A stretch of DNA of 42,236 bases from a virus: UHGV virus genome UHGV-1360403. One strand, 5' to 3'. Position numbers and translations under genes: made by a program. Shown piece after piece: positions 1 through 42,236 of the stretch. How positions within the stretch are numbered: the stretch's first letter is position 1; each line of letters begins with the position of its first letter. The notes under the pieces are model-generated. The model did not search any database and had not been told where the DNA came from. It saw only the letters and a program-made list of their open reading frames with translations.

Positions 1-644
1 AGTTTGGTCCAGCTCTGCCCCGGAAACTGTATCGAGTTGAACCAGCGTGAGGTAAACGCGCCGTAAGTGCGCCCGAGACGTTGCCCCTGGTCCACAAACC
101 ACGATTGTCCCCACAAATCTACCAGGCCGTTCGGTGCTGGCGTACCGGTGAGATTTATCCAGCGCCGGACATACTTATGCGCCACTTTGCCCAGCGCCGC
201 CGCGCGCTTACCACCACCGCGCAGCCGGAAGGATTTTAGCCGGGTGCTTTCATCTGGAATGACAGTACCGAACGGCCATCGTTCTCCCAATTCTTCAATC
301 AGCCAGACAAGGTTATCGTAGTTGATGGTGAACACGCTTGCGTTGCTGTTCGTCAGCGCCATAGAGCGCGCTTTGGCATTACCAATAATTGGCTGCACCT
401 CGATATTGCGCAAATGTCCCCACTTCAGTGCTTCATCCGGCCATGTGCTGGCAGCCACGCGCAGCGGCGCGAGGACCAGTGCGGGGCATGTTTCTGCCCC
501 TGCCATAAAGAGATCTTCCAGCGCAGTGAGCGTTGCCACGGTTTTACCCATTCCCATCCCCGCCCAGATGTTGCCGCGCAGGGTTTCGGTTTCGTGGTTG
601 ATAATGAGAACTTGGTAGGGGCGAGGTATATATTTTGGGGGCAT
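1..644 (-). CDS. SNF2-family helicase, N-terminal part (continues at 41486..42236 across the window junction)
   Basis: ATG at 644..642; hand translation MPPKYIPRPYQVLIINHETETLRGNIWAGMGMGKTVATL... with Walker A GMGMGKT, DExx-like IPDES and LTGTP motifs; open to position 1 with no stop. Confidence 0.85.
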   Translation of the reverse strand, partial: MPPKYIPRPYQVLIINHETETLRGNIWAGMGMGKTVATLTALEDLFMAGAETCPALVLAPLRVAASTWPDEALKWGHLRNIEVQPIIGNAKARSMALTNSNASVFTINYDNLVWLIEELGERWPFGTVIPDESTRLKSFRLRGGGKRAAALGKVAHKYVRRWINLTGTPAPNGLVDLWGQSWFVDQGQRLGRTYGAFTSRWFNSIQFPGQSWTK

Positions 645-706
645 ATAATATGGCTCCTAAACAACAAAAGGCCAATTTAGACCTTTTGTTGTTTTAAAAA
701 TGTTAT

Positions 707-1624
707 TTATAATAGTGCTGTTACTATTGCATCTTTAAAAATATTTTCTTCTTCATTTATTAAAGGTGATGACAGATGAATAATTACTTCTTTTCCTGTC
801 AATACTATTTGCTCGACTTGAAATCCTGCGTTGTGTAGTCTTTGGCGTAACTTTTCTAGTGCTGATTTTGATATACTAAATCCTTCACTCCTTATAGTAT
901 AACTGGCAACTCCATTTTTAATAATATCTACAGAGTTGTCAATTTCCTGCTGCGAGTAATTTTTCGGTGAGTCGAAAAATCTGGATTTTGTCGTTGCTGT
1001 TGCCCTAAGAGATATCAATAATGATTTGATATCTTTAATCTCAGATGCCAGATACTCAGTTTCTGATACTTCTTTCTGGTCTAGTTGTGCAACTTTGAAA
1101 GTGCCAAAATGTTTGAGGAATGTTGTGTATTCAGGATCAGTTACTGACTTTAAATATGTTTCTTTTATCTTGCTCGCAAGTCTTTCTTTGAATAAATTGA
1201 TTGATTGGTATCTTAAATCCGAAGGGTACTCTAAATGTTCAATTGATGAAATGTCAAAGCTATAAGGAGTGCGCTCGTCCTTAATAATTACGGTCGGTTT
1301 GTCAAATGCGAGACGCATTCCTAATTCAAACATTACATTAGCGTTTCGAGCACTTATATCGCAAACAACTATGGGGTTTTCATAAAGATTTTGAACAATT
1401 CGTTTTTGTATTACTGCAACATCATCATCTGAACTTACCAAATTTGCCTTGAATCCGGCATCATTTGATGCTTCACAAATAATGTCATGAACATTTCTCC
1501 AATGTCCAGTGGGATAACCTTCTATGTCCGCAATTGGCATAATAATGCCGCATATATGAGGTGGCATATTTTTGTTGTCTTTTACATCATCTTGGTTTAT
1601 TTCTTTCGTTTGTTGCTTAGCCAT
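707..1624 (-). CDS. AT-rich cargo protein (305 aa) with N-terminal TIR-like / nucleoside 2-deoxyribosyltransferase-like Rossmann domain; C-terminal domain unknown
   Basis: Markedly AT-rich relative to flanking genes; motif PIVVCDISARNANVMFELGMRLAFDKPTVII parallels ARQNVVLEMGMLLSSLGRSNVAIL in the 2354..3115 protein. Confidence 0.6.
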   Translation of the reverse strand: MAKQQTKEINQDDVKDNKNMPPHICGIIMPIADIEGYPTGHWRNVHDIICEASNDAGFKANLVSSDDDVAVIQKRIVQNLYENPIVVCDISARNANVMFELGMRLAFDKPTVIIKDERTPYSFDISSIEHLEYPSDLRYQSINLFKERLASKIKETYLKSVTDPEYTTFLKHFGTFKVAQLDQKEVSETEYLASEIKDIKSLLISLRATATTKSRFFDSPKNYSQQEIDNSVDIIKNGVASYTIRSEGFSISKSALEKLRQRLHNAGFQVEQIVLTGKEVIIHLSSPLINEEENIFKDAIVTALL

Positions 1625-1639
1625 AGCTTACACAGACTC

Positions 1640-1924
1640 CTATTGTAATTTTTTGCCTAATATACATGAAAGCTCCTTACTATCCAGTACTACCACGGTA
1701 AAGCCCAGTTTTCGCAGACGTTCATGCTCGCGCAACTGATCAGGTCGTGGTGGTTTGCCTGGTGCTTTGCATTCGACAAAGACGATGCGACCGCCGGGTA
1801 GCAGAACAATGCGATCTGGTACCGAGCGGAGACCGGGAGATACGAACTTAAAGGCAACCCCGCCAGCCTTTTTTACTTCAGCGACGAGGTGCTTTTCGAT
1901 TAGGTTTTCACGTTCATAGGCCAT
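1640..1924 (-). CDS. VRR-NUC domain nuclease
   Basis: 94 aa; AFKFVSPGLRSVPDRIVLLPGGRIVFVECKAPGK pattern typical of VRR-NUC (PD-(D/E)xK) phage proteins. Confidence 0.75.
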   Translation of the reverse strand: MAYERENLIEKHLVAEVKKAGGVAFKFVSPGLRSVPDRIVLLPGGRIVFVECKAPGKPPRPDQLREHERLRKLGFTVVVLDSKELSCILGKKLQ

Positions 1925-2118
1925 TAGCTTTCGCCTTCCTGCTTTTTGCGTTTCTTCATGCAGATAGCGCAGTTCTCAGGATGGTCATGCCATTCGTCAA
2001 TCCTGATACCTGTGAACATCCATTTTCCGCATAGTGATATGGCTTCCCCCGAATTAAAGAAATGTGCTTTTTTCGACAGGGCGGGGAACCCCCAACCTTT
2101 ATTATCGATATTAGACAT
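1924..2118 (-). CDS. Small Cys-containing hypothetical protein (64 aa)
   Basis: ORF ends where VRR-NUC gene starts; C..C/H..C..C spacing suggests a small zinc-binding protein. Confidence 0.45.
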   Translation of the reverse strand: MSNIDNKGWGFPALSKKAHFFNSGEAISLCGKWMFTGIRIDEWHDHPENCAICMKKRKKQEGES

Positions 2119-2290
2119 CGTCCACCTCCTTACGCTTTTCGCGCATGTTCTGCATCAGACAAAAATCAAACCGACGTTCGCTTTGGCCCAGACCTGCATC
2201 GCCCGGTCGTACCCGCTGGACTGTTCAAGGCGCAAAGCCTCCCGTGCAGTCCGGTAATAAAGCGGACTGTCCCGGTATTTAAATGACATA

Positions 2291-2330
2291 GGGTTTTTAT
2301 TCCCAAATAAAAAACCCCGCAATGCAGGGT
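2291..2330 (-). terminator. Intrinsic terminator-like hairpin downstream of the TIR-like gene
   Basis: Minus strand reads CCCTGCATTGCGGGG followed by TTTTTT; the plus strand also forms GGGTTTTT...AAAAACCC. Confidence 0.5.
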
Positions 2331-2353
2331 TGTAATCAACAATAAGGGGGTAA

Positions 2354-3115
2354 TTACGAGGAAGCGTTAGCTATTTGAGCTTGTGTAAATTCGAAACCAG
2401 AATTTTGTAACCGTTGCACTAGACGAGGAACTGTTTCACGTACATGGTCGTTGAAATTCAGATACAAAATCCCGTTAGCATCAGAAGGCTGTTCTAGGTG
2501 CTGTTTCTGAAGGATTGCTACATTGCTGCGCCCTAAGGACGAAAGAAGCATACCCATCTCGAGTACAACGTTCTGTCTTGCGCGGGGTTGGATTTCTGCT
2601 TCACCGGCGCGCTTTGAGTATCCCATATCATCAGGTGTCAAAAGAACAATCCCGAAACGAGTAGCAGTTTGTCCTTGCCCAATTTCACGTTCAAGCTCTT
2701 CAATAATGGTGAGTCCAGTCCCTCCCGTATTCTGCAAAATGAAATGGTCTGGTAATCCAAGTTTATGAAGGATTAGCTCAAGTTGTTCCTTTGCAGTATG
2801 GTCATGGCCGTGAACAATGAATATCTTTTTGGGAAGCTCAGATGGCTGTTCTACGGCTAGTGGTGTTGCCGTGGGGGGCGTTCCTAAATGGGACATTATT
2901 GCAGTTTCAACATTGGGACGTTCTTGAGGGTTCCCTTGAAACTGAATGGTCCGGGTGGTGTAAAGGTTAACAATTACGCCATTCGTTAAACGATAGCAGT
3001 CATAAGTCTCACGCTGTTCGTGGGAAAAATTGGTGAACCCACACTCCCTCAAAAAGTCAGGAAAAGATTCTCTCGGGTATGGATAGTTGATCGGCATTTC
3101 AGTTAGTTCCTGCAT
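2354..3115 (-). CDS. TIR-like domain protein (253 aa): novel ~100-aa N-terminal domain plus C-terminal TIR-like nucleotide-binding domain
   Basis: KIFIVHGHD...GIVLLTPDDMG...ARQNVVLEMGMLLSSLGRSNVAIL matches the 'predicted nucleotide-binding protein containing TIR-like domain' pattern; own terminator downstream; lower G+C than PolA by eye. Confidence 0.65.
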   Translation of the reverse strand: MQELTEMPINYPYPRESFPDFLRECGFTNFSHEQRETYDCYRLTNGVIVNLYTTRTIQFQGNPQERPNVETAIMSHLGTPPTATPLAVEQPSELPKKIFIVHGHDHTAKEQLELILHKLGLPDHFILQNTGGTGLTIIEELEREIGQGQTATRFGIVLLTPDDMGYSKRAGEAEIQPRARQNVVLEMGMLLSSLGRSNVAILQKQHLEQPSDANGILYLNFNDHVRETVPRLVQRLQNSGFEFTQAQIANASS

Positions 3116-3179
3116 AAGTATTGTTCCTTTAATTTACTCGAATTCAGCATGTCGCCATAGCTCGATAAGGTGAGTTATA

Positions 3180-5243
3180 TCAATCTTTTTTGTAGTGGTA
3201 CGCCTCAAAGCCGCCAGCGTTCAGCGGAATATCGGGTGCCCATTCGGGGTTAGTGGAGAGAAGCGCGGAAAGCGCTTTATCGTTGAAATCTTCTGTGTCT
3301 GGTGCTTCGGTGATCACCTCGTCGTGTACCGTTAGCACAATGCTGTAACCGGCACCCTCGATCAGCGGCATGTTTCTGGCTAGAACGTCGCGGGCGGCCG
3401 CCTGGGTGACGTTCTCCACCAGCTTTCCGCCGTAGGTTTTGAGTCGTTGCCATTTACGCGAATAAGAGTTAACACCCATGTAGGTGATATTCCCTTGTTC
3501 GATAACCGGAGACGGGTAGCATACAGCGCGTCCGGATGGTAGCTGTATGCGCAGCCACGCGCCATCACGTCGGATTTTAAGATAGCCGCAATACAATGTT
3601 TTTTGCGGTGTGGCGATTGCTGTGCGGACAGTGCGCTCCAGCTCGTACCAGAAATCGCAGGTCGCCGGGTGCGCCCTGCGCCACAGGCGCTTGAGCGAGT
3701 CACATGCGATGAATACACGCTCGGACAGGCCAAAGGTCGACTTACGCTTAACCGATTCGTCGTACCAGCTTTTTGCCTCGCGGATAACATCGCGGGGAAT
3801 GTTTGGCAGTGCGGCGTTCGCCAGCTCGTCGAGATCGAGACCGTAAACCAGAGCAAAAGTGATGAAAGCCGATACACCACCTCCATAACCCAGACCGAGT
3901 TCCATGACTTTACCGATCTGACGCATGTGTTTATCAACATCATCTGGTGCAATATCGAAAGCTTTTGCATACGCCAGTTTATATAAGTCCGGACCCGTTC
4001 CAGCGTCATACTCTCTGAATGCATTCAGTTTCCATTCTTCTCCCGCCAGCCATGCCAGCATACGGCCTTCAATGTTTGACAAGTCACTTACCACTAGTTT
4101 TTTGCCTGTTGGCGCGATAATGCAGCCACGTAACGCTGAACTGGTTAGTTCCATGATATTGTCAAACAGCAGGTCTGCACATCCGGCTTTCAGTGCTTCG
4201 ATGCCTTCGTCTATTTGTTCCTGTTTTAGTGAAGGGCGGGGAAGGTTCTGGGGCTGGAATAGCCGTCCGGCCCAACGACCGGTACGTGACGCCCCGCAGA
4301 ACTGTAGCGTACCGCGTAAGCGCCCGTCGTGGCTTACGCCTTTCATCAGTGCCTTGTATTTACTGGTGCTGGTAGTACTGGCTTGCAGGCGGATAGCCAG
4401 CAGTTCTTTCACGGCAGATGATAAATCGGGGTCGGCCATACGACGTTCCAGGGTACTGCGTTGCATGTCTGGTAGCTCCACACCGTAGGATTCAACGATG
4501 TGCTTAATCAACGCGTCCCGTTGTGTGGCTGCCTGCACTTCGCCATCAGTCATTTCCTGTGTACGCTTTGCCAGGCGCTTTTGCTCCTGGTCTACCGCTT
4601 CGATCGCAGCGCGCGCGAGTTGCATGTCCATGCAGACGCCCCGGTCGTTGATCTGCTGATCACGATGCCAGAGCGCCAGCTCTGTCCCCTGATAATTCCA
4701 CTTCGGCAGACGTTTATAGACTTCACGCATTGCTTCGATATCCAGTCCGGCGTAAGCAACAAAGCGCCGCCATTCTTCCGGATGGGTTTTACTGGTGGCC
4801 CGACGCAGTTTGCTGTTTTTCGGACGTGGCTTACAGAACAGCTGGATCAGCGCTTTACCTTCTTTGTCCTTCGCTTTGTCTTGCGGGACGCCTAGTACTT
4901 CGCAGAGTTCCCCCAGAGACCCCGGGAGACCGTGCGCCAGCGCCTGCACCATCGTGTCGCGCCAACGTTCGACTGGCGGTGCCAGTCGCGGCATTGCATA
5001 ACGCAGAACGGTGCGGTCGAAGTGAGAGTTATGGAAATAAAGCAGGGTTTCAGGGTCTGCGATTGCTTCGTATAAGCCGTGTGGAATACCACCACCGGCA
5101 GTGATATCCCACACGTTTACTGGCCCGTCGTTGATAGCCCATGCGAAAAGCATCACTTCAACGCCTTCGGCATACGCATGGGTACCGTTCGTAATAGGGA
5201 TTTCGCAATAGGTTTCCAGGTCGCCCCATAGTATATTGGACAT
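3180..5243 (-). CDS. Family A DNA polymerase (PolA-like, with 3'-5' exonuclease region)
   Basis: 687 aa; N-terminal exonuclease-like region and C-terminal polymerase region (...[14 protein letters not shown]..., ...[11 protein letters not shown]...). Confidence 0.85.
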
Positions 5244-5289
5244 GTGTTTACCTAGGTTTTTATTCTATTAACTGATTAAAAGATTAATT

Positions 5290-5919
5290 ATGCATATGAT
5301 CCAATACTTGATTGACCATACAGAGCATCTGGAGAAAATAGCTGGATATATTTTTTCATGTTTGATTGTTATGGGAGTCTGGATAAGAAAGATCATTTTT
5401 AATTATAAGTATAAAGAGCCTAAATATGTCAAGAAGTTAATTTTATATTTAATTAAGTATGAACGTTATCTGGATAAGGAGGATAAGAAAGCCATAGAAA
5501 AAAGAATAAATGATAAAATTATTCGTGATGCGCTGAAATTGCAATCCTCTTATAACCGAAGAGATGTTATTTACATTTGCAATAGATTAGAAAAAAGACA
5601 GTATATAAATCAGTTGATTAAGCTTCAGAATTATATAGAGAAAGATAACGGAGTGTTTTTTATTAATGTTGATTTTTCAGGTTTTTTATTTATTATTAGT
5701 CGTCTGTTTTCCTTTCTGTGTTTTGTGCTGTTTACCCTTTTTTCTATTATCTGCATTATTTCCATAGGGCAAAATGAAGGCCTTTTAAATTATCTTGTGT
5801 ATATGGTTATGATAATAGTTTTAGAGACTGTTGGTTTTTGGATGTATGATACTTTCCCGTCTAAGAAAAAGATCTGTGAACTAAATAAAGAATTGAGAAA
5901 GATTAAGATTCCTGAGTGA
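5290..5919 (+). CDS. AT-rich Lys-rich membrane protein (209 aa, about 3 predicted TM helices), opposite strand to the replication operon
   Basis: Very AT-rich ORF; hydrophobic stretches IAGYIFSCLIVMGVWI, FLFIISRLFSFLCFVLFTLFSIICIISI, LVYMVMIIVLETVGFWMY. Confidence 0.6.
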   Translation: MHMIQYLIDHTEHLEKIAGYIFSCLIVMGVWIRKIIFNYKYKEPKYVKKLILYLIKYERYLDKEDKKAIEKRINDKIIRDALKLQSSYNRRDVIYICNRLEKRQYINQLIKLQNYIEKDNGVFFINVDFSGFLFIISRLFSFLCFVLFTLFSIICIISIGQNEGLLNYLVYMVMIIVLETVGFWMYDTFPSKKKICELNKELRKIKIPE

Positions 5920-5937
5920 TTATACGCCTAATCAGTA

Positions 5938-5956
5938 GCCCGGTGTTTAACCGGGC
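5938..5956. terminator. Hairpin between convergent genes (possible bidirectional terminator)
   Basis: GCCCGG-TGTTTAA-CCGGGC inverted repeat; no clear T-tract. Confidence 0.3.
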
Positions 5957-5971
5957 GTCTATGAAGTAGGG

Positions 5972-6520
5972 TTAAATTAGTGCTTCAGCATCAGCACCTT
6001 CGCTGATATCGTCGAAATCGTCAGCGCTTGCCACTCCGCCGCCAGCGAATGCATCGCCGTCTCGCAGGAACTGGACTCCGCCGAGTGAGGCATTAATGCG
6101 TTTACCGAAATTATTGTCCTGTGCCCAGATATCGATAACGGCGTTTACATAGCACCCTGCATAAGGACGTCCGTCAGCCTGAATAAGTGGCGAACGATCG
6201 CGATCAAGAACAGCTGGGCGCGCTTTGTTAGCAGCATTCAGGAAGAAATTGCCGGGGAAGCCTTCATACTCTGCTTTTTCATCACCATCATGCAGGCACA
6301 GATTGAGTTTTTTCTCCAGCTGGTTATAAATGGGCTCCCACTTCTCTCCCCATTTTTCCTTCGCTACCTGCTTCATAGCTTTACGGATTTCTTCCAGTTG
6401 TGGGTGTTTGGGAGACATTAAAAATACTGCGGAGAAACGCGGATCGCCTTCGCCGTTTACAGTTTTAGCTTCAAACAGAGACGGGAAGGCCAGACGAACA
6501 TTGTTCAGCTTCAGTTTCAT
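5972..6520 (-). CDS. DUF2815-like phage ssDNA-binding protein
   Basis: N-terminus MKLKLNNVRLAFPSLFEAK and acidic C-terminal tail (DDFDDISEGADAEALI), typical of this replication-module family. Confidence 0.75.
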   Translation of the reverse strand: MKLKLNNVRLAFPSLFEAKTVNGEGDPRFSAVFLMSPKHPQLEEIRKAMKQVAKEKWGEKWEPIYNQLEKKLNLCLHDGDEKAEYEGFPGNFFLNAANKARPAVLDRDRSPLIQADGRPYAGCYVNAVIDIWAQDNNFGKRINASLGGVQFLRDGDAFAGGGVASADDFDDISEGADAEALI

Positions 6521-6535
6521 GGGTATTTCCTTAAA

Positions 6536-7837
6536 TCAGATGAGGTCTGCGGTTAGCGTATCGTCGGATACGTCGTCGAAATCATTTACAGGGTTGATAT
6601 TGAGTGCGGGGCGTGGGTCTGACTCGGGAACGACGGTTGGTTTACCATCAGCTCGTGTTATCAGTGCCTCGACTTTTGACCAACGGCGTGGACTGGCCTT
6701 TTTGATAAGTTTTTCGGCTTTTGTGGGACTAATAAGTTTAAAGTCGAATACTTCTTCAGTTTTGTACCTGAACTGGTCCTTCAGAAGTGCGCGAGCTGCC
6801 TCTTCATCACTCCAGGCCCGGTTACCTTGTTTTCCTGTTACCAGTTTAAACCCCGGTACCGGATGTCCGGCATTGAGTTCATTGTGAACCCGGTCCCGTA
6901 CTGCCTTTAGCCAGGACTCAATAAAGTCGGCCTGGCTATAGATCTCCGCAAGCTGCTCAATGGTTAACAGAGGTACACGTGCGCTGGCATTGGTGATTAT
7001 TTCGCTGACAGGCTTTGTCAGATCTTCAAAGTCGCTGGCCGCTGTTTGTAAATGCTGCATTTTCTGGGCAGTGCAAATAGCTTTTGCTTTACAGAAGCGG
7101 CACTGCTTTTCTCCAGGTATGAAGTTTTCCAGCGGTAGTGTCTCAATGCCTTCGCATTCAGCAATATTGAGAACAAGGATCGCACTGGTTGCGGCCTCCT
7201 GTGCTCGTTTACCGAAAGACTGAAGTTCCTGCACGGTTAACGACCATTCTGAAACGTGGTTGAGCCTTGGCTGGTGAATAAATAATCTTACAGTCTCAAA
7301 GTCATACAGCATGCTGAATTGTTCGAGAGCACCCAGAGCATACAGTTGTAGTTGCTCATTTTGTTCTGCATCAATGCGGACGCCTTTGCCATATTTCAGG
7401 TCGTGGATTTGTAATTCGCTACCAGCGATGATTATGCCGTCGGCAGTTCCGAAAGATTCTTCCACACCCGTTATATGTGAGAAATCAACACGTTGTTCAA
7501 CCAATAGTTCATTATTCTGTGCAAGAGTCCAGACCGTATCAACATACCGGCCAACGGCTTCGACCATTTCATCATCCACCTGTGGGCCAGATGTATCATC
7601 AGGATTTTCGCGAAGGGGGTATGAGCCGAGAAACATAGAAACATTGCATCCGGCGTAGTGTTCCGGGTGGCTTTGCCTGTTTCGTAGAACTTTTTCAGCA
7701 AGCGCGTGCGCTGCAGTGCCCTCGATTGCAAAAGTTGTTTCTTTATCCGGTTGTGTGGCCTCCAGCGCCAGACTTCCTGGGCAGCGCATCCATCGATGCG
7801 CTGATGATGGAGAAAGTTGTGCATGAACGTCTGGCAT
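6536..7837 (-). CDS. DUF2800-like PD-(D/E)xK nuclease (Cas4-like, C-terminal Cys cluster)
   Basis: [16 protein letters not shown]-terminal signature; C-terminal [10 protein letters not shown] cysteine cluster. Confidence 0.75.
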
Positions 7838-10057: not shown

Positions 10058-10732
10058 TTAGTACATGCGTAGCGCGGATTTGGCGATCCCCGCCACGTAA
10101 TGGATTTTTTCAATGTTTTCGCGTGGTACTCTGACTGGTGGATGATCTTCATTTACAGACATTAGATGGAACAGGCCATCGCGTTCGAACAAGAAGGTTT
10201 TAACCATGACCTCACCGTCCCGGGTAACCACAAGTACTTCATCACCAGGAGTGTAGTCGTGGTTGGGTTCGACGATTACGAACTCACCCTCTTTGATTCT
10301 AGGCATCATTGAATCACCAACACATTTCAGGGCGTATGCATCTTCATCCTTTGTCGGCCAGTATATGAAACCATCACTGCTACCTACTGAATATTGGGTG
10401 TCGCTCCAAAGTCCTCCAACGCCTAGCTGAGTGTTTCCCAAAACAGGTACTTTATTAAACCTAAGAGAAATATACGTTTTTATACCCGTCGCGTCCTCTT
10501 TCTCCATTTCTTGAAGGCTCCTTTCTGCCAGGTCTATTGGTGACACGTGGAAGTAGTCGGCGATCTGCTTTAACGTTGCGTATTTCGGATCTTTCACCTC
10601 TCCTGATACCAGCCTGTGTAGCGTTGGTTGGTTCAGTTGTAACCGACGTGCCAGCTCAGTTATCGAGCTTATCTTGGCTTTGTCCATCAGGTACTTGATG
10701 TTTTGAGAAAGGATATCGGTAGTATCAATCAT
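10058..10732 (-). CDS. CI-like repressor (N-terminal HTH, C-terminal S24 LexA-like autopeptidase)
   Basis: HTH ...SITELARRLQLNQPTLHRLVSG...; S24 signature CVGDSMMPRIKEGEFVIVEP with downstream Lys. Confidence 0.9.
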   Translation of the reverse strand: MIDTTDILSQNIKYLMDKAKISSITELARRLQLNQPTLHRLVSGEVKDPKYATLKQIADYFHVSPIDLAERSLQEMEKEDATGIKTYISLRFNKVPVLGNTQLGVGGLWSDTQYSVGSSDGFIYWPTKDEDAYALKCVGDSMMPRIKEGEFVIVEPNHDYTPGDEVLVVTRDGEVMVKTFLFERDGLFHLMSVNEDHPPVRVPRENIEKIHYVAGIAKSALRMY

Positions 10733-39592: not shown

Positions 39593-39894
39593 TACTGCAT
39601 CACCATGAAAATAAATGTATTTTTATTTAATTTCACACATATCACAATTAATACAGCGTTTAGTAATTAGTAAAGACATTTCAATGAATTACCGTTAAAT
39701 CATTTTAAAAATCAGTAAGTTGTATCGAGTTTGTATGCTTTACTGTCATTAACTTACTGTATGTTGATCCAGTGTATTTAACCTTGATAAACTCAGTCCA
39801 GTAACACAAAGCCGCAACACATTGCATTTTGTCCCGTAGAAAAGACTTGTATGTGTGTGCTTGTTTTCTGCGCCTACGCAGATAAGGATTGAGA

Positions 39895-41292
39895 ATGCCG
39901 CGCACTGTAACACATAATCCGGATAGCCCCAATAATGACGATGTTTTAGCCGCATCTGAAAAATGGGACGCCTGTAAACCCCCCTATACCAGCGCACACA
40001 TGAAAATCTGTGTTGCTGCCGCCAAAATCATCCTCGCTGCTTCCGGCGTGGCTCGCCGTTCCAAATACGAAAAAGAGAACTATCTCCGTATCGATTTCAG
40101 CAAAGCCGGTAAGGTTACATTTTACGCCGAGTTTCCAAAAAAGATGGGCCTCAAAGGTAAAAAGCTCGGCGAGTGGCCGGAGCTCGCTATCCAGCTGGCG
40201 CGCGAAAAAGCGCTAGGTATGGCTGACGGTGGCCTGCGGGCAGAGTCCGTACATGCAGCGCTGGAAATGTACCGGGATGACCTCAAAGCCAAAGTCGCCC
40301 GGCAGAAGCTGAGCCCGGACAGTTTCACAACCTACGGGGTGCGTATCGACCGGATTAAAGCAACGTTCGGCGAGCGCGAGGTGTTCAGCGACGTAACATA
40401 CAATCGGCTGGTGGAAGTGCTGGACGAGTGGATCGCTACTCGCTCGAACAATAACGCCCTGGAGTTGTTTGCCGAGCTCCGTCGGTTCTGGAAGTTCTGC
40501 GCACCTACTCTTTGCAACGGCCGCAATGTTGCCGCCAGTCTGCCAGATGATTATGTTTCCTCCCGCGTACAGAAACCTACCCCCACACGGCTTTTTACCG
40601 ATATTGAATCAATCGCCCGACTCTGGCTCAATGTTGCTGCCTGCACCTCTGTACACCAGAAGAATGCTGTTCGCTTCATGATCATCACTGGTGTTCGTCC
40701 GATTAATGTCCATAACCTGCGCTGGGACTACGTTCACGAGGAGGCTGGTGAAATTGTTTATCCGGAAGGGGTTATCGGCATGCGAGGGGCTATGAAAACA
40801 CAAAAGGCTTTCCGCCTGCCGATAACCCCTGAGATCCGGCGGATTATCGACGAGCAGAAAGCCTGGCGTGATTCAGTTCCTGAGTGCAACAGGGATTATG
40901 TATTTTTGCAGCCACGTGATCCAATGCAGCCATTTTCAAAACGATCACTGGATAAGCTGGTGAAAACATACAGCCCGGACGGGGCTGTAAAAGGAATAAA
41001 ACATGATGGGACTGTTAAAGGGAAAGACGGTGCATTTAATACGATGTGCCGTAAATTCCTTAAGAGCAATGTTATTGCCTTGATGAAGGAAAGAGGCTAT
41101 TCCCGCTCAGACCGAAGGGAAATCAGCCTCCTTTGCCTTCACCACTCCAGCAAGTCAGATGACCCGATGGCAGAACATTACGACTTTTCTGATGAGATTT
41201 TACAGGAAGAGATTGCGTTGAAGCGCGAAGCTTTCGAGGCTCACGAGCGGAGCATACTTGCGCAGGTGGCATTGCTACGGCGGCGAGGTTAA
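39895..41292 (+). CDS. int: Tyrosine integrase (P4/CP4-like family)
   Basis: Catalytic-domain pattern ...IITGVRP... (box I Arg), ...MKTQKAFRLP..., ...LLCLHHSSKSDDPMAEHY (His and catalytic Tyr); ATG at 39895 with AAGGA 7 nt upstream. Confidence 0.8.
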   Translation: MPRTVTHNPDSPNNDDVLAASEKWDACKPPYTSAHMKICVAAAKIILAASGVARRSKYEKENYLRIDFSKAGKVTFYAEFPKKMGLKGKKLGEWPELAIQLAREKALGMADGGLRAESVHAALEMYRDDLKAKVARQKLSPDSFTTYGVRIDRIKATFGEREVFSDVTYNRLVEVLDEWIATRSNNNALELFAELRRFWKFCAPTLCNGRNVAASLPDDYVSSRVQKPTPTRLFTDIESIARLWLNVAACTSVHQKNAVRFMIITGVRPINVHNLRWDYVHEEAGEIVYPEGVIGMRGAMKTQKAFRLPITPEIRRIIDEQKAWRDSVPECNRDYVFLQPRDPMQPFSKRSLDKLVKTYSPDGAVKGIKHDGTVKGKDGAFNTMCRKFLKSNVIALMKERGYSRSDRREISLLCLHHSSKSDDPMAEHYDFSDEILQEEIALKREAFEAHERSILAQVALLRRRG

Positions 41293-41489
41293 TACTGGCT
41301 GCGACATTTTTGAATAAAAGCGTCGATATTTCGGCGCTCATAACGAACTACTTTTGCACTGAAACGAATTGGTGCCAGGATAGCCCGATGACGATGCTTA
41401 ATATTCCACTCACATAGCGTTTTCTGTGTAATACCTAACTTTTGGCATACTTCATCCGGGGTGAGTAAATCGTCGGGTTTCTCGCTCAT
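41289..41489 (-). CDS. AlpA/excisionase-like small HTH DNA-binding protein
   Basis: 66 aa; LLTPDEVCQKLGITQKTLCEW HTH; start ATG overlaps the helicase stop (ATGA), stop overlaps the int stop. Confidence 0.6.
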   Translation of the reverse strand: MSEKPDDLLTPDEVCQKLGITQKTLCEWNIKHRHRAILAPIRFSAKVVRYERRNIDAFIQKCRSQY

Positions 41490-42236
41490 GCTATACCTCT
41501 CTTTTTCATGGCATCGAGCAGGATGTCCTGCACTGTTCGTTTTGAGTTGCGCCGCTCCATCACCATTTCATCCATAGTGTCGGCAGCAATAATGTGGTGA
41601 ATAAATACCGGACGATTGTGTCCGGCCTGTATCTGCCTGGTGGGGCCGATACGTTCAATAATTTGCTGATATTGCTCCAGGTCCCACCAGTGTGAGAAAA
41701 ATACCAGTATATTTCCGCCGTCCTGCATGTTCAGGCCGTGGCCCGCGCTGGCTGGGTGTGCAAAGAGAACAGGAATCTTTCCGGAATTCCAGTCGCGCAG
41801 TGTCTGTGGATCCTGGTCGAGGTGACGACCGCGAGGGAATGCTTTAAGCAAGCGTTCAAGATCGTGTTTCCAGTGATAAGCAACCAGCACAGGTGCGCCA
41901 GCTGCTTCGGTCAGTATGCTGTCCAGCGCCTGTAGTTTGGTGTCATGCAGTTCTGACCAACTTCCGGTGTCATCTGTGTATACTGCGCCGCTGGCGATTT
42001 GCAGACACTTCAGTGTCTTTGCCGCGGCGTTCGGTGCTTCGATGCCTTCGCCATTCAGCTCGAGGAACATTTCCTTTTCCATTTCACGATACTGCTGACG
42101 GGCCTTCGGTGGCATATCCACGCGGATTACGTTATGGATGGGGTCTTTGATATCGAACCAGTCGGCCGCATCCAGCGAGAGGGTTACATCGGCTAACGCT
42201 CGCTGTATTTCACCCTGTGAGTGAGCAAAAGGCTCC
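41486..42236 (-). CDS. SNF2-family helicase, C-terminal part (5' portion is 1..644 across the junction)
   Basis: Helicase C-domain motifs (...VLFAHPASAGHGLNMQDGGNILVFFSHWWDLEQYQQ...); reading frame open to the window end and continuous with 1..644. Confidence 0.85.
   Translation of the reverse strand, partial: EPFAHSQGEIQRALADVTLSLDAADWFDIKDPIHNVIRVDMPPKARQQYREMEKEMFLELNGEGIEAPNAAAKTLKCLQIASGAVYTDDTGSWSELHDTKLQALDSILTEAAGAPVLVAYHWKHDLERLLKAFPRGRHLDQDPQTLRDWNSGKIPVLFAHPASAGHGLNMQDGGNILVFFSHWWDLEQYQQIIERIGPTRQIQAGHNRPVFIHHIIAADTMDEMVMERRNSKRTVQDILLDAMKKRGIA

Follow-up and report, generated by a model that had tools for sequence, protein, structure and literature searches.

TIR NADases acting in abortive infection, defence morons of prophages and the candidate family PDC-S35 are already on record, and they are the systems closest to the locus described here. 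The ICEBs1 element of Bacillus subtilis encodes SpbK, a TIR NADase that is activated by portal-mediated clustering of its TIR domains and also makes N1-cADPR (PMC12847820). In a systematic screen of 32 E. coli TIR candidates, 12 defended and 20 did not, and three single-protein "short TIR" defenders were found to be triggered by portal or tail-fibre proteins (Wang et al., 2024; PMC11350192). Among proteins fused to a ligand-sensing module, the TIR-STING protein SfSTING binds NAD in a pocket formed by R78 and N80, with E84 as catalytic residue, and the site is completed by D110 of the neighbouring TIR only in the filament (PMC9402430). Anti-phage dCTP deaminases (the "dCTPase" of PADLOC), as outlined in the summary of Tal et al. 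(2022) given in PMC13276650, act by dCTP deamination instead of NAD+ hydrolysis. Finally, PADLOC lists PDC-S35 as a single-gene phage defence candidate; this class is a computational one and PDC systems are described as unvalidated. In the literature searched we found neither an experiment on PDC-S35-type proteins nor the name PDC-S35, and neither PDC-S35 nor PF10137 is listed in the supplements of the PADLOC "embedded" preprint.

The DNA analysed here, referred to as the window, is the whole 42,236-nucleotide sequence of the virus genome UHGV-1360403. It represents a circularly permuted temperate E. coli phage genome, as deduced from an SNF2-type helicase gene that is split across both ends of the window (41486-42236 and 1-644, minus strand) and that is immediately preceded by the integrase (39889-41292). 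Region 600-6600 is 100% identical to Escherichia phages vB_EcoM-689R2 and vB_EcoM-611R5 (ON470582, ON470588). Besides the integrase, the phage encodes an S24/HTH repressor (10058-10732, minus strand), a Q antiterminator and a holin, and its leftward early operon comprises a DUF2800 nuclease, an Enc34-type SSB, a family-A DNA polymerase (PolA, 3180-5243), a VRR-NUC protein and the SNF2 helicase. The gene of interest lies in this early replication operon 64 nt downstream of PolA, co-directional with it, on the same strand as the repressor gene and downstream of the latter.

The open reading frame of 253 codons reported in the earlier note at 2354..3115 on the minus strand is indeed present, with an ATG start and a stop codon at 2354-2356. 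It is preceded by a cassette-specific spacer (3116..3179, minus strand), which begins exactly at the PolA stop codon, varies in sequence among allele groups and carries a Shine-Dalgarno motif, AAGGA (3125-3129), 9 nt upstream of the ATG. The protein is identical to URC09081.1 of ON470588, already annotated as "TIR-like domain-containing protein" in GenBank; RefSeq prophage copies are labelled "TIR domain-containing protein", and phrog_16442 is matched over the full length (7.5e-107). In an AlphaFold model computed from 38 homologues (mean pLDDT 73), it falls into three parts: a compact N-terminal TBP-like domain (residues 8-78; 2882..3094, minus strand) modelled with a pLDDT of about 92, a disordered linker of low confidence (residues 79-96; 2828..2881, minus strand) with pLDDT below 50 at residues 80-92, and a TIR part of moderate confidence (pLDDT 55-85). 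We are thus dealing with an annotated gene of a catalogued candidate family, which is real and was correctly interpreted, and not with a new category; what is added here, namely the identification of the N-terminal domain and of its modular behaviour, is modest.

The TIR domain covers residues 97-253 (2357..2827, minus strand), that is a Pfam match over residues 97-222 followed by two C-terminal helices, as delimited by PF10137, Foldseek and matches to PDB sequences. The motifs by which it had initially been spotted are located at residues 98-105 (IFIVHGHD), 158-163 (LLTPDD) and 179-188 (ARQNVVLEMG), and the profile search fully bore out the assignment: PF10137, the CAP12/Pycsar TIR family of the STIR clan, is matched with 108.4 bits against a gathering cutoff of 24.7 (E 2.9e-31) over 118 of 119 profile positions, and all 38 homologues match it as well. 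The fold comparison, made on a TIR model of moderate pLDDT, agreed, with Foldseek retrieving the TIR-STING structures 9lmq and 7un8 (E 3.6e-6 to 3e-4, probability 1.0) and then SPARTA TIR-APAZ proteins. Cap12 TIR-STING proteins and PycTIR are also the nearest solved sequences in the PDB. In HMMER alignments R180, N182, E186 and D212 correspond to R78, N80, E84 and D110 of SfSTING, and the four residues are invariant in the 38 homologues, which stem from Enterobacteriaceae, Vibrio, Guyparkeria, Vreelandella and others. A conserved catalytic glutamate, as proposed for verification at the outset, is hence predicted at Glu186 (GAG codon at 2558..2560, minus strand, within RQNVVLEMG). Judged from these alignments, the TIR domain is a catalytically intact member of the CAP12/Pycsar family, and the protein looks like an active NADase that would depend on TIR-TIR assembly.

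Among described families, the best correspondence is with PDC-S35: the PADLOC model PDLC05003 aligns over its whole length, its positions 3-245 of 245 being matched by residues 10-253 (E 1.2e-108), and with the other four PDC-S35 models the match is confined to the TIR half. The protein is a PDC-S35 member that does not differ from this family. With Cap12 TIR-STING (SfSTING 7un8; 9lmq) it shares PF10137, the best structural and PDB sequence match, the R/N/E residues and the aspartate acting in trans, and an oligomerisation-gated NADase is likely the chemistry common to both. However, the STING/SAVED ligand domain and the adjacent CD-NTase of Cap12 are absent, the putative sensor of the 253-aa protein being N-terminal and of TBP-like fold, and the NCBIfam Cap12 equivalogs score only 34.8 and 30.5 against a cutoff of 450. 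Similarly, PycTIR (PDB 8jsj) has the same PF10137 TIR and the RxNVxLE(F/M)G motif, and the PADLOC PycTIR model is matched at 1e-8 over the TIR part only, but the protein has no cyclic-nucleotide-binding domain and no PycC cyclase in the contexts examined. Membership in Cap12 or PycTIR was therefore rejected, a sensor domain or cyclase missing and the equivalog cutoffs being failed. The likeness to Thoeris, CBASS and Pycsar effectors claimed in the earlier note thus holds for the last two, whose TIR family is PF10137, and not for the ThsB family of Thoeris, as no PF08937 match and no ThsA-like neighbour were found. Lacking the defining sensor domains and partner genes, the protein is neither a Cap12, nor a PycTIR, nor a ThsB.

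Bacterial TIRs can be signal synthases. By analogy with Thoeris, the protein might produce a cyclic ADPR-type messenger for an effector located elsewhere in the host or in the prophage. SpbK, which makes N1-cADPR in addition to degrading NAD+, provides a precedent (PMC12847820). Such a messenger would call for a partner, and no conserved partner gene accompanies the homologues: neither a cyclase, nor a CD-NTase, nor a ThsA-like gene occurs in any homologue context examined, and PADLOC scans of ten other accessory ORFs of the window identified no partner gene. To our knowledge, the PF10137 TIRs characterised to date (Cap12, PycTIR) are effectors, and we regard a role as signal synthase as the least probable of the readings weighed here.

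The N-terminal domain, which the earlier note had left as unrecognised, turned out to be recognisable as a TBP-like fold of the RNase HIII-N/RnlA (NTD-NRD) type. In the predicted model it adopts a beta-alpha-beta4-alpha topology, whose best structural matches are RNase HIII and RnlA. Likeness in sequence is marginal: the three top matches of the domain profile in the PDB are RNase HIII, LsoA (residues 107-164) and RNase H3, with weak E-values of 0.012-0.31, and they centre on a common TG(T/S)hQhQG strand; below the gathering thresholds of Pfam, RnlA_toxin is matched by 11 of 38 homologues (best 8.5e-4) and DUF3378 by 2 of 38. A Foldseek search of the domain against BFVD returned nothing at E <= 0.001. 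In the known proteins the domain accompanies RNase H or HEPN, and here its fusion partner is a TIR. Its closest structural relative (4py5) binds RNA/DNA hybrids (see also PMC3710099).

A profile search of 1.84 billion representative proteins retrieved 854 proteins with this N-terminal domain, mostly TIR fusions or fragments. The exceptions include P0233 and P0228, where the domain precedes a deaminase module matching the PADLOC model of anti-phage dCTP deaminases (P0233, E 7e-173) and replaces the first ~140 positions of the canonical dCTPase model, and P0225, a 428-aa protein with multiple transmembrane segments; in P0171 the domain is duplicated in tandem. Compared by hhalign, the N-terminal domains of non-TIR proteins match the TIR-fused one at 98.6-98.8% (98.8% for the deaminase proteins). 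Sensor or targeting domains are typically recognised by this pattern, a small N-terminal module ahead of varied cell-damaging effectors, and we putatively assign such a role to the domain. Its presence on both TIR and dCTP deaminase proteins suggests, from sequence comparison, a common sensor serving two nucleotide-depleting effectors. One may speculate further that the domain is a portable infection sensor, used by at least three types of effectors (TIR NADase, dCTP deaminase, multi-TM protein), and that it would sense not a phage protein but a nucleic acid arising as an intermediate when phages replicate, RNA:DNA hybrids for example. This extended proposal is tentative and, taken as a whole, rather unlikely. 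If true, it would provide single-protein abortive infection with a direct sensor of nucleic-acid structure, and the fixed position of the gene beside PolA, described below, would reflect coupling with replication of the prophage itself or protection against it.

The two domains do not evolve in concert. Among prophage alleles, identity amounts to 80-100% in the TIR domain, 41-54% in the N-terminal domain and 8-47% in the hypervariable linker. A chimeric allele (6001-6756 of IMGVR_UViG_2671180372_000004, locus L028) is 99% identical to that of the window in the TIR domain, 46% in the N-terminal domain and 24% in the linker, providing direct evidence of recombination at the domain boundary. In three other contigs (L035, L039 and L047), PolA, SSB and DUF2800 are 97-100% identical to those of the window and the N-terminal domain is of the other type (46%). 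Together with the contrast in identity between the domains, these alleles indicate that the N-terminal domain moves between alleles as a unit, which is how a specificity determinant under conflict would be expected to behave.

The gene as a whole is also exchangeable. The PolA-VRR-NUC module occurs in 159 of 5,426 complete E. coli genomes and includes the TIR gene in 47, of which 37 harbor the allele of the window and 10 another one, with 76% DNA identity in the TIR half and an N-terminal half that can no longer be aligned. E. coli IAI1 is among the carriers, with 98.8% identity in the gene. The gene is missing from the remaining 112, whose module is otherwise 95-100% identical. By blastn against one such TIR-less prophage (locus L002), positions 2118-2296 and 3179-5251 of the window align and homology breaks exactly at 2296/2297 and 3178/3179, which delimits a swap unit at 2297..3178; the corresponding 882 nt are replaced in this prophage by 207 nt holding a 67-aa ORF. 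The view that the gene is a moron rather than replication machinery was thus supported by its variable presence in the replication module of relatives, by the exact swap boundaries and by a terminator of its own. Since the indel is exact and a terminator keeps its position with unrelated stems, the cassette consists of the spacer, the gene and the terminator. The TIR gene is best explained, from these genome comparisons, as a self-contained accessory cassette exchanged horizontally in a lineage of temperate phages of Enterobacteriaceae.

The terminator anticipated from a hairpin and T-tract 3' of the gene on the same strand was found at 2303..2331 (minus strand) by terminator scan, folding and allele comparison. 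It reads AACCCTGCATTGCGGGGTT followed by TTTTATTT, with an 8-bp stem and a 3-nt loop (2331..2313, minus strand; -11.3 kcal/mol, z -2.6) and TTTTATTT as its tail. It is the sole terminator-like site of the minus strand within 600-6600, and such a single site is not significant by itself because the scan yields 3 sites for 6.3 expected. Nevertheless, nine gene variants drawn from E. coli, Serratia and viral contigs of metagenomes were compared, and each has a hairpin with a T-run at this place (-11 to -26 kcal/mol, z -2.6 to -7.2); the stems are unrelated in at least five of them, and the corresponding slot of the TIR-less prophage has no terminator. Base composition is less telling. The gene is, as first noticed, lower in G+C than PolA (0.451 versus 0.541), but the window averages 0.491 and the gene ranks at the 17th percentile of windows of the same size, so it is PolA that stands out, by a high value, and not the TIR gene by a low one. 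G+C was accordingly considered too weak a sign of foreign origin, and two neighbouring ORFs deviate far more (0.344 and 0.287).

A 44-aa ORF lies directly after the terminator (2155-2289, minus strand) and matches the ANR (AraC negative regulator) family just below cutoff (NF033650, 3.5e-7). It was considered as a partner gene belonging to the cassette and dismissed, an ANR-family gene being present at the equivalent position in TIR-less relatives as well.

A consensus scan detected no sigma-70 promoter upstream of the TIR gene, and inspection by eye of the region upstream of allele B yielded only a weak TTGCTG-17-TATTTT. The gene, given its position and strand in the operon, may thus be switched on only in lytic growth and remain silent in lysogens. 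Its position relative to PolA is also remarkably fixed. Relatives are found in 152 viral contigs of IMG/VR, 39 of them full-length with 64-100% identity, and all 39 lie directly after PolA within the same module, with a gap of 50-70 nt, even where PolA identity drops to 73-77%; a Serratia marcescens prophage shows this arrangement as well. This invariant position could reflect a function tied to replication. The protein might then be an accessory of lytic-cycle replication, co-transcribed with PolA, whose TBP-like domain would bind RNA:DNA hybrids (primers or R-loops), as its nearest structural relative does (4py5; PMC3710099), and whose TIR/DrHyd-type glycosidase would either target nucleotides or nucleic acid to the phage's advantage or provide a checkpoint for replication of the phage itself. 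The missing promoter fits such a role, as does the presence of another TIR/DrHyd-like gene and of DUF4406 in neighbouring slots. However, the gene is dispensed with by the 112 E. coli relatives whose module is nearly identical, close homologues are solitary with no polymerase nearby, and an intrinsic terminator within the operon would be unexpected for one of its integral members. We consequently hold this replication role to be quite improbable. The TIR gene has a clear TIR match, and it is not universally conserved in this module with an assigned replication role.

More than 2,700 homologues share the two-domain architecture of about 250 aa. Outside phages they are solitary in the contexts examined, which are varied: an integrative element with an integrase and TrwC in V. 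cholerae, an array of short same-strand ORFs in V. parahaemolyticus that we read as an integron cassette array, the vicinity of an integron-type integrase together with Mrr and PemK, an island with a reverse transcriptase, DUF4062 and two toxin-antitoxin pairs (ParDE and Phd-YoeB), and a locus flanked by IS elements. On the other hand, tblastn against 50,697 GenBank phage records recovered the protein in 4 only. These distributions bear on the alternative, already raised in the earlier note, that the phage uses its TIR protein for counter-defence, either by destroying or sequestering immune nucleotides of the host or as a decoy poisoning host TIR assemblies, and thereby aids infection. The gene is indeed phage-encoded and sits in an early operon, and TIR enzymes are rare in phage genomes, where their role has been called enigmatic (PMC9503650). 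Yet most family members reside in bacterial islands, integron-like arrays and integrative elements and not in virulent phages, in line with the handful of GenBank records. A dead decoy is also at odds with the NAD+-cleavage residues, which are all retained and invariant. We know of no TIR-based anti-defence protein, and we consider counter-defence to be very improbable; context favours defence over anti-defence.

We propose, with a probability of about 60%, that the 253-aa protein combines sensor and NADase in a single polypeptide and serves abortive infection or superinfection exclusion. This is the best reading of the intact TIR domain, the PDC-S35 match, the accessory status, the conflict-type contexts, the modular N-terminal domain and the precedents; the lack of a detected promoter, the fixed position beside PolA, the 20 of 32 E. 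coli TIRs without defence and the moderate confidence of the TIR model speak against it. [quoted passage not shown] TIR-V/VI/IX are likened to our protein by description and not by sequence, and SpbK was not among the top 50 Foldseek matches in the PDB. The E. coli cluster of the 253-aa protein is probably large enough to be among the 32 candidates of Wang et al. (2024).

According to this model, the N-terminal domain would recognise a cue of infection by an incoming phage. SpbK and E. coli TIR-V/IX offer the example of a phage protein, such as the portal, in this role, and the N-terminal domain of RNase HIII that of a nucleic-acid duplex, such as an RNA:DNA hybrid; either may be the cue here. 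Going by precedent, the nucleic-acid ligand to which the fold points would be no more likely than a phage protein. Recognition would assemble the TIR domains, the E186 site of a subunit being completed by D212 from the adjacent one, and hydrolysis of NAD+ would then arrest or kill the cell before the superinfecting phage finishes its cycle. The lysogen population being protected, the prophage would be protected too. If confirmed, this would represent a compact prophage-borne NADase of about 250 aa protecting lysogens, whose small swappable sensor is also put to use by a dCTP deaminase and a membrane effector, and a convenient system to study minimal sensor-effector recognition of phages and the reshuffling of specificity through domain exchange. 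Confirmation of the TIR reading would also make the PolA-proximal slots of this prophage lineage hotspots of accessory genes.

As judged from gene content, accessory slots form a mosaic over the whole stretch from PolA to the helicase. Between the ANR and VRR-NUC genes, a DUF4406 gene is present in most TIR-less relatives (2738-3037 in locus L002; other E. coli), and others have a SAM methyltransferase, Bro-N, DUF7446 or an ATP-binding protein. DUF4406 is a family that we take to be nucleoside 2-deoxyribosyltransferase-like and of the same TIR-DrHyd fold class. In the interval between VRR-NUC and the helicase, where the TIR-less prophage L002 has Rha/Arc genes, a second variable slot of the window is occupied by a 305-aa ORF (707-1624, minus strand) of very low G+C (0.344). 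Its N-terminal part displays a TIR/DrHyd-like motif, NVMFELGM...LEYPSD, which aligns with NVVLEMGM...LEQPSD of the TIR gene; it matches a PADLOC TIR-effector model weakly (PDLC00733, 1.1e-6) as well as phrog_3634, and its relatives are found in Klebsiella, Dorea, Latilactobacillus and Streptococcus phages. On this likeness, it may be a second nucleotide-targeting moron of the same module. On the other side of PolA, between the latter and the SSB gene, an ORF of 209 aa (5290-5919) lies on the opposite, plus strand; it has the lowest G+C of the window (0.287), matches phrog_10579 and appears, by eye, hydrophobic in its C-terminal half. The equivalent slot holds a DUF4145 protein, of a family classed as HEPN (PMC3710099), in the Serratia prophage (locus L012), a hypothetical gene with BRO-N in locus L002, and a hypothetical gene, Nmad5 and IS1 in a further relative (locus L003).
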